Below, piece after piece: positions 57,615 through 59,594 of a DNA stretch of 64,000 nt. A model generated the notes under the pieces. It was not told where the DNA came from, did no database searches, and was given only the letters and a program-made list of their open reading frames with translations. The stretch lies in the NCBI RefSeq assembly GCF_988243305.1, contig NZ_OZ547136.1; one strand, given 5' to 3'. Numbering within the stretch: the first letter of the stretch is position 1; each line of letters opens with the position of its first letter. A program made the position numbers and the translations under genes.

Positions 57615-59594
57615 TCAGAAGCGATAATCCACTGCCATAAAGTAACGACGTCCGTCTTCGTTATAGCTGTAGTCGTCACGACTGAGATCCTTGTCGCCAA
57701 GGTTCAGCACGCCTGCGCGCAGTTTGACGTCTTTAGTCACCTGCCAGGCCGCACCGGTATTCCAGATGGTATAACCGCCCGGTGTTTTAGCCGTCGCGCT
57801 GTCGGCGCGTTTCTGCCCGGTATAGTGACCAGAAACATAGAATGACCAGTCTTCCAGCGCCAGCGGTTTCCAGTCCAGCGTACCGTTAGCGGTATGGAAC
57901 GGCAGATCGGATAAAGGTTTATTTTCGCCGTTGCTGACATCACGACCATCGTTGTAGGTGTAGTTGAGTGACAGTTTCCATTCATCGTTGAACGGAATTT
58001 TCAGTTCGGTTTCCACGCCCTGAATACGAGCTTTGTTAACGTTGTAGTAGCTAAATACCGGCACACCGTTCGCTGTAAAACCAACAAAGTTTTGGTAGCC
58101 TGGTGCAGCATTGACGTCAGACGTACGGCTGATGCTGATACGATCTTTCACATCGTTACGGAAAACGGTAACGCTGGATTCAACCCCTTCCAGCCAGCCT
58201 TCTTCACCCATGTAGTAAAGCCCCAGCTCCCAACTTTCGCTCGTTTCTGGTTTCAGATCCGGGCTACCCACAATCTTACATGCGCCACGGCAAGAATTGC
58301 TCGTCCAGTCAGGGCTAAGTTGCAACAGAGAAGGTGCTTTAAATGCCGTCGCCCAGCCCCCTTTTACCGTTACGGTGTCGGTGGCGTTATAAACCAGGTA
58401 GGCACGCGGACTCCAGTGTTCACCGTAGGTTTCATGATCGTCCATACGTACGCCGGTCGTCAGCGCCAGCGGCTCGAAGATCCGCCATTCATCTTCCACA
58501 AACAGCGCGTACTGGCTGGCAGACGTTTTGGAGCTGGTTCCCCCAGTCAGGTTCACCGCATCGCTAAGTTTGTCGTGACGCCATTCACCGCCAACCGTGA
58601 GAAACTGATTAATCGCCGTCAGCGGCAACGTGTATTTGCCGTCGACCGTATTGCTTTCGGAAGTTATCGGGCTGCTGTTGCCAGGGTTTTTGTTCTCGAC
58701 TTTCTCACCGTAGTATTTCAGTTCGCTGGTGCCGTAATCCCAACGCCCATTATGGCTGACGGATTAGTTCTGGCGTTCCAGGCGGTTTTTGTCCAGCGAG
58801 TCGGAATCACGATCCTGACGGTCGAAACCGTATCCGGCAGTAAAATCGTGATTTTGATTCGGTGTCCAGGCAAATTCGACATTGCCGTCGCGGCTGGAGA
58901 ATCCTTCAATACGCGGCGTTTCTCCGGTATCGGTGGTCGTTGAGTTTTGCGGGTCATCCTTTTCACGTTTTGCCAGGCTGCCGTAAGCTTTCATTCCCAG
59001 CACACCGTCAATTAATGGTCCGCTGGTAAAGAACTGACCGTTATAGGTATCACCGCGATCGCGATGTTCCTGAATGGTGGTATCGACGGTAACGGTACCC
59101 GACCATTTCTGACCGATTTTTTTGGTGATGATATTCACTACACCGCCGAGCGCATCGGAACCGTACAGCGACGACATCGGGCCACGGACCACTTCAATAC
59201 GTTCGATGGAATCGACCGGGATCCAGTTCAGATCGAAATCATTGTGGCGGAAGACGGCATTGCGGGAGTTAACGCGTTTACCGTCGACGAGAATCAGGGT
59301 GTAGCTGCTGTCCAGACCACGAATACTAACGCCCTTACGGTTATCCCCTTCGTTCGTCAGTTGTACGCCAGGCACTTCTTTGAGGACATCCTTCAGATTC
59401 TGTACCGGTTTTCGCTGCAGGTCTTCCTGGGTAATGACGCTGATACTGGCAGGTGCATCTTTAAGGTTTTGTTCAACGGAAGATGCAGTGACAACCATCG
59501 TTTCGCCATCATCATCGACCGCTAACACAGGCCATGCACAAGAAATAGCGGACAAACACAGCCCGACCCGTACGAAAGGGTTCAACCTAAACAT
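57615..59594 (-). pseudogene. cirA: TonB-dependent catecholate siderophore / colicin I receptor interrupted by an in-frame TAA stop at 58764-58766
   Basis: ORF-track pieces 58764..59789 and 57615..58628 are in one frame (58764-57615=1149=3x383); read-through gives ...[30 protein letters not shown]...; signal peptide [25 protein letters not shown] with GGAG RBS; C-terminal ...AVDYRF. Confidence 0.8.

Follow-up and report, generated by a model that had tools for sequence, protein, structure and literature searches.

The cirA gene, which encodes the catecholate siderophore and colicin I receptor, is interrupted by a stop codon at this locus, and the question is whether this reflects a true loss of the receptor and, if so, whether the loss was selected. 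On the evidence given below the strain very probably carries a genuine, recent, single-base nonsense mutation (Tyr277 to stop) that abolishes production of the CirA receptor in E. coli.

In the window, by which we mean the whole 64-kb stretch of DNA that was analyzed, cirA lies on the minus strand at 57615..59594 and comprises 660 codons including the terminal stop. Translation from 59594 to 57615 on that strand runs from MFRLNPF to AVDYRF and a normal terminal stop, with a lone internal stop at codon 277, and the list of open reading frames holds the gene as two halves, 58764..59789 and 57615..58628, in a single shared frame. The 1,986-bp cirA segment was matched to annotated cirA in 5,425 of 5,426 complete E. 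coli genomes, the best annotated counterpart being cirA of E. coli AST215 with 99.6% identity. When Tyr277 was restored, the protein matched the PDB chain 2HDF_A (“Colicin I receptor”) with E = 0, query residues 26-659 corresponding to chain residues 2-639, and it also matched 2HDI (“Colicin I receptor”) over residues 26-659. Pfam recognized a Plug domain at residues 44-152 (E 2.8e-33) and a TonB_dep_Rec_b-barrel domain at 221-632 (E 9.6e-64) in the restored protein. The gene order lysP-cirA-yeiG, with yeiG convergent with cirA, is that of annotated E. coli. Judged by the 2HDF/2HDI match, the domains and the synteny, the interrupted gene is cirA.

The original prediction, that an in-frame TAA at 58764-58766 splits cirA, was borne out, as the plus strand reads TTA at this position and codon 277 on the minus strand is thus an ochre codon, the single internal stop of the gene. 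An alignment to reference cirA sequences had been proposed for finding the ancestral codon, and it gave TAC (Tyr277): the three closest complete-genome alleles all carry TAC at codon 277 and align without gaps, and TAC was likewise found in 36 out of 36 non-truncated cirA loci retrieved. The mutated base is window position 58764, which is T on the plus strand and A at cirA nucleotide 831 on the coding strand, and the change is therefore a G:C to T:A transversion, with C replaced by A at nucleotide 831 and, on the plus strand, G by T. Since the window differs from the 659-residue alleles by substitutions only, with zero gaps, an indel is excluded and the change is a nonsense substitution, in agreement with the earlier reading of the two same-frame pieces.

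For dating the mutation we used a near-isogenic locus (L026) that was obtained by an exact-protein look-up of the neighboring YeiG. This locus (GCA_042723055.1 and 16 similar places) has an intact 659-codon cirA, and in 8,837 bases only 3 distinguish it from the window, at positions 53028, 56023 and 58764, the last of which is G in L026. Because so close a relative has retained an intact gene, the stop arose at the tip of its lineage, the other sampled members of which carry cirA intact. By the same comparison the stop is the sole lesion in cirA, and the region upstream of the gene is identical in the two. Among the complete genomes no close relative was found, the best reaching 99.0-99.3% identity over 25 kb, and a search of 5,422 complete E. 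coli genomes for the 61-mer of the window around the cirA stop gave no exact match, the best hits having one mismatch.

Restoring Tyr277 yields a protein identical at every residue to a CirA that is very common in nature, present in 23,085 index blocks. In ten loci that encode it codon 277 is TAC in every case, and 16-21 other cirA bases differ from the window. These differences must be synonymous since the encoded proteins are identical, and the preservation of one protein across 16-21 base differences speaks for strong purifying selection on intact CirA.

What remains of the gene can be divided at the stop. The still translatable frame of 276 codons (58767..59594, minus strand) covers the signal peptide, an ETMVVTA motif, which we take to be the TonB box of CirA, the plug, and approximately the first quarter of the barrel, the last being an estimate from residue numbers and not from structure; Plug was the only Pfam match in the 276-residue product. 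The untranslated remainder (57615..58763, minus strand) holds codons 278-659 and the stop, that is most of the β-barrel and the C-terminal DYRF, in a sequence that is intact and identical to L026. Within 68 codons after the stop the only in-frame start is a TTG at codon 323, which has no Shine-Dalgarno-like sequence upstream and would give a product devoid of a signal peptide, and by this reading there is no plausible site for re-initiation downstream of the stop. No tRNA gene, and hence no suppressor tRNA, was found within the 64-kb window. With a T following it, the TAA stands in a context in which E. coli terminates efficiently.

Upstream of cirA a promoter-like site on the minus strand (TTGATA-17-TATCGT, 59761..59793) overlaps GATAAT-type repeats resembling Fur boxes, and it shows no differences from L026, where cirA is intact. 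The assignment as Fur boxes is tentative since near cirA the 19-bp Fur consensus is matched with 6 mismatches at best and nowhere with 3 or fewer. Just past the cirA stop, between the convergent cirA and yeiG genes, lies a terminator-like hairpin (57589..57606, minus strand). As there is no gene downstream of cirA in the same transcript, no polar effect is expected.

Translation of this allele would end after 276 residues. Everything from the signal peptide through the ETMVVTA motif to the plug would be retained, while of the barrel about three quarters would be lost, and the C-terminal DYRF with it. A fragment of this kind cannot form a barrel, from what is known of outer-membrane protein assembly. 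With most of the barrel and the C-terminus missing it should therefore fail to insert, and we infer that it would be degraded. By analogy with published knockouts, the cell would then have no receptor for colicins Ia/Ib and CirA-dependent microcins, and its uptake of dihydroxybenzoylserine-type catecholates and catechol-conjugated β-lactams would be reduced.

Is truncation at this position a singular event? The exact 276-residue product occurs in 137 index blocks of public data. Among the loci recovered, L005 has TAA at codon 277 and is identical to the window over the locus, L004, L007 and L009 have TAA at the same codon in other haplotypes, L006 has TAG, and L008 has an 8-bp deletion creating a TAG at codon 277. 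The codon-277 TAA alleles fall into at least three or four haplotypes: over 6.8 kb, 54 positions separate the window from L007, 90 from L004 and 96 from L009, while the last two are 16 positions apart. Since the same TAA is found in divergent haplotypes it must have had several independent origins, and it does not mark a single clone. Four further matches (L010-L013) are contigs merely ending at cirA nucleotide 828 or 830 (equivalent to window 58765/58767). That contigs of different haplotypes end exactly at these nucleotides is an observation in its own right, and within-sample polymorphism that breaks assembly graphs might be the cause.

Because retrieval with the 276-residue product by design selects truncation at codon 277, control codons were examined in the same way. 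The prefix before Tyr277 was found in 137 index blocks, 18 of them with contigs of at least 10 kb; the corresponding values were 40 and 11 for the prefix before Tyr255, 55 and 19 for that before Tyr287, and 81 and 2 for the prefix before Tyr266 of the adjacent lysP gene. Both cirA controls showed the same mixture of TAA, TAG, 1-bp indels and contig ends, and independent truncations were thus found at every cirA Tyr codon checked (255, 277 and 287). A mutational hotspot at codon 277 was considered and is rejected for isolate-quality contigs, given the similar numbers at 10 kb or more (18 versus 11 and 19) and the same mix of events. At the matched Tyr codon of lysP a real stop was seen in 1 of 24 contigs examined, while the full-length lysP allele is present in 65,026 blocks. 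For the one control codon compared, real truncations are by these counts several-fold commoner in cirA than in lysP. This excess fits recurrent selection for loss of cirA, and it fits a weaker constraint on cirA alike.

The surroundings of cirA are those of an ordinary E. coli chromosome. From rcnB to nfo the window and E. coli isolate AF40 are colinear, with 52 out of 52 compared genes present, and no insertion sequences were found within the window, from which we conclude that it is a segment of the E. coli core chromosome and not of a decaying genome of the Shigella type. Decay of that kind was considered as an explanation and rejected on account of the 52 colinear genes, the lack of insertion sequences, and internal stops being limited to two genes. 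The second of these is the fimbrial usher gene yehB (3778..1298, minus strand), which carries its own nonsense allele, Gln103 CAA to TAA, at 3470-3472. The 61-mer around the yehB stop was found in none of 4,177 complete E. coli genomes having the region (best match with one mismatch), and the 102-residue yehB product was found in about 10 public contigs, for example from SRR18158960, which are 1 base from the window in 6.3 kb. As these contigs are nearly identical to the window, the yehB stop is common to a small clade, unlike the stop in cirA. The mdtQ gene (40452-41888) has no internal stop in the window.

Other features of the window were recorded along the way. The identity to AF40 is uneven, with 94.4% in yehA (248-1282), 93.5% in yehK (16796-17116), about 96.5-98% from metG to yehQ (7171-24196), and 100% in dusC, yohJ and yohP; the pattern looks like a recombination mosaic. 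An OrzO-P antitoxin RNA scores 101 bits in Rfam (gathering score 60) at 17505-17580 on the plus strand, within the 575-bp spacer between yehK, which ends at 17116, and yehL, which starts at 17692, a match suggesting that this spacer harbors a type I toxin-antitoxin locus of the zor-orz kind. Rfam also found a Peptidase-S11 cis-regulatory RNA motif (72.8 bits) at 38015-38095 on the minus strand, directly upstream of the D-alanyl-D-alanine endopeptidase gene pbpG (38010..37078).

Whether the cirA allele was selected is less easily decided than its existence, as recent selection, drift and laboratory passage could each account equally for a private tip mutation. The original prediction was that loss of CirA confers resistance to colicins Ia/Ib, some phages and siderophore-conjugated antibiotics, and that the allele of this strain may have been selected for resistance. 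The published record supports one part of this. Resistance through loss of CirA is documented for colicin Ib (PMC3879352), where competition by way of the colicin was CirA-dependent in work with a complemented MG1655 cirA mutant, and for a CirA-dependent microcin (PMC8853679), where spontaneous Mcc1229-resistant mutants had cirA frameshifts or a promoter deletion. For phages no support was found in the one systematic screen consulted, as growth on cirA::kan was unaltered across the BASEL collection (PMC8594841). With respect to siderophore antibiotics the claim was overstated, because deletion of cirA in ATCC 25922 left the cefiderocol MIC at 0.125 μg/mL before and after (PMC9241927), and loss of cirA therefore bears on cefiderocol only in strains that have NDM-5 and a PBP3 insertion as well, both being required for resistance (PMC9241927). 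Our literature searches found nothing relevant on a cirA Y277 allele and nothing on cirA nonsense alleles with colicin Ia. On this background we give about an even chance, or slightly better, to the view that the allele rose by selection, with colicin or microcin pressure as the likeliest agent.

A serious contender, though held with somewhat less than even confidence, is that the stop is real and was never selected, being either a tip mutation of neutral or mildly deleterious effect or a product of laboratory passage, tolerated through the overlap of Fiu and FepA in catecholate uptake. The private nature of the allele favors such an origin, as the closest relatives (17 places) are cirA-intact with only two other differences in 8.8 kb, the 61-mer is absent from the complete genomes, and cirA has suffered no secondary decay; moreover, the yehB Q103* allele in the same 64 kb shows that pseudogenes are not unusual in this genome. 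It is harder to reconcile with the several-fold higher frequency of truncations in cirA than in lysP at comparable Tyr codons, and with published work in which a CirA-dependent microcin or cefiderocol readily selected cirA knockouts (PMC8853679, PMC8579844).

Selection by cefiderocol or another catechol-conjugated β-lactam, within a genotype that combines cirA truncation with NDM and a PBP3 insertion, is improbable in our judgment. Its appeal comes from NDM-5 E. coli resistant to cefiderocol, of which 22 out of 26 had premature cirA stops, at 109, 389 and 621 residues, and in which complementation with wild-type cirA lowered the MIC 8-16-fold (PMC9241927). The window cirA is also 99.2% identical to alleles of several clinical strains, including strains from the CDC AR-bank and West China Hospital. 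Against this stand the unchanged MIC when cirA alone is deleted, cited above, and the best complete-genome match of 99.0-99.3% over 25 kb, showing that the strain does not belong to a clone that is well sampled there. Of the genotype that gives cefiderocol resistance (cirA truncation, a metallo-β-lactamase and a PBP3 YRIN/YRIK insertion) the window shows the truncated cirA, and the blaNDM and ftsI (PBP3) loci both lie outside the 64 kb.

Two further readings carry very little weight. It could be imagined that the 276-residue product, its ETMVVTA motif and plug intact, reaches the periplasm, escapes degradation and titrates TonB, thereby dampening several TonB-dependent entry routes, in which case truncation at such a depth would be more useful to the cell than a clean deletion. 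The hint in this direction is the number of prefixes ending at codon 276 (137 index blocks versus 40 at codon 254 and 55 at codon 286). A common TAC/TAT polymorphism does not explain this excess because all 36 intact loci have TAC, but the excess lies entirely in contigs below 5 kb (104 versus 23 and 28), mostly contig-end fragments, and we find titration of TonB most unlikely. That the TAA is a sequencing or assembly error in a strain that really has TAC could be argued from its being a one-base difference from the near-identical L026, but this is hardly credible, as a separate, k-mer-based Logan assembly from run ERR15422816 has the same base and matches the window with 100% identity across 6,831 bp, the TAA included, the site is outside any homopolymer and overlaps neither GATC nor CCWGG (the nearest CCWGG is 14 nt off), and the identical change in other public haplotypes makes it a biologically ordinary event. 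Run ERR15422816 may stem from the window's own isolate, or be its own run, and it is accordingly not independent biology, while it still provides read support in a second assembly.

Returning to the nonsense mutation as a genuine loss of CirA, we regard it as real but ordinary, a premature stop being an already known kind of event in a gene that is hit repeatedly. From the allele one would predict that neither colicins Ia/Ib nor CirA-dependent microcins act on the strain. Catechol-conjugated β-lactams also lose one of their entry routes, which acquires clinical weight only together with a metallo-β-lactamase and the PBP3 insertion. More generally, the counts for cirA versus lysP support the notion that loss of the CirA receptor is a recurrent and cheap step in E. 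coli, be it adaptive or tolerated.

Compared with the crystallized receptor 2HDF, the copy in the window stops at codon 277. It is furthermore of the 659-residue allele type, which is four residues shorter than 2HDF in the segment where the latter has GFEtgANGrrIPVF; in the window this segment lies at approximately 58070-58090 on the minus strand, corresponding to cirA codons 503-509 or thereabouts. Both the 659- and the 663-residue types are common in public data, and the difference could be a length polymorphism of a surface loop. The public truncations at codon 277 (L004, L007, L009, L006 and L008) share the 276-residue product with the window, and their haplotypes are unlike that of the window. 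The cirA alleles of the NDM-5 isolates (ST167 “truncated at 109 aa”, others at 389 and 621) affect the same gene and belong to the same class of premature stops that remove the barrel, but the window allele is unlike them in being at codon 277 and in another genetic background, NDM-5 and the PBP3 insertion being features of those isolates. The cirA mutants that were selected by Mcc1229 or protected from colicin Ib (PMC8853679, PMC3879352) resemble it in that CirA is lost through a small mutation bringing in an early stop, and receptor-loss resistance would be expected here as well; those mutants are frameshifts, a promoter deletion and engineered deletions with measured phenotypes, whereas the window carries a base substitution known from its sequence.
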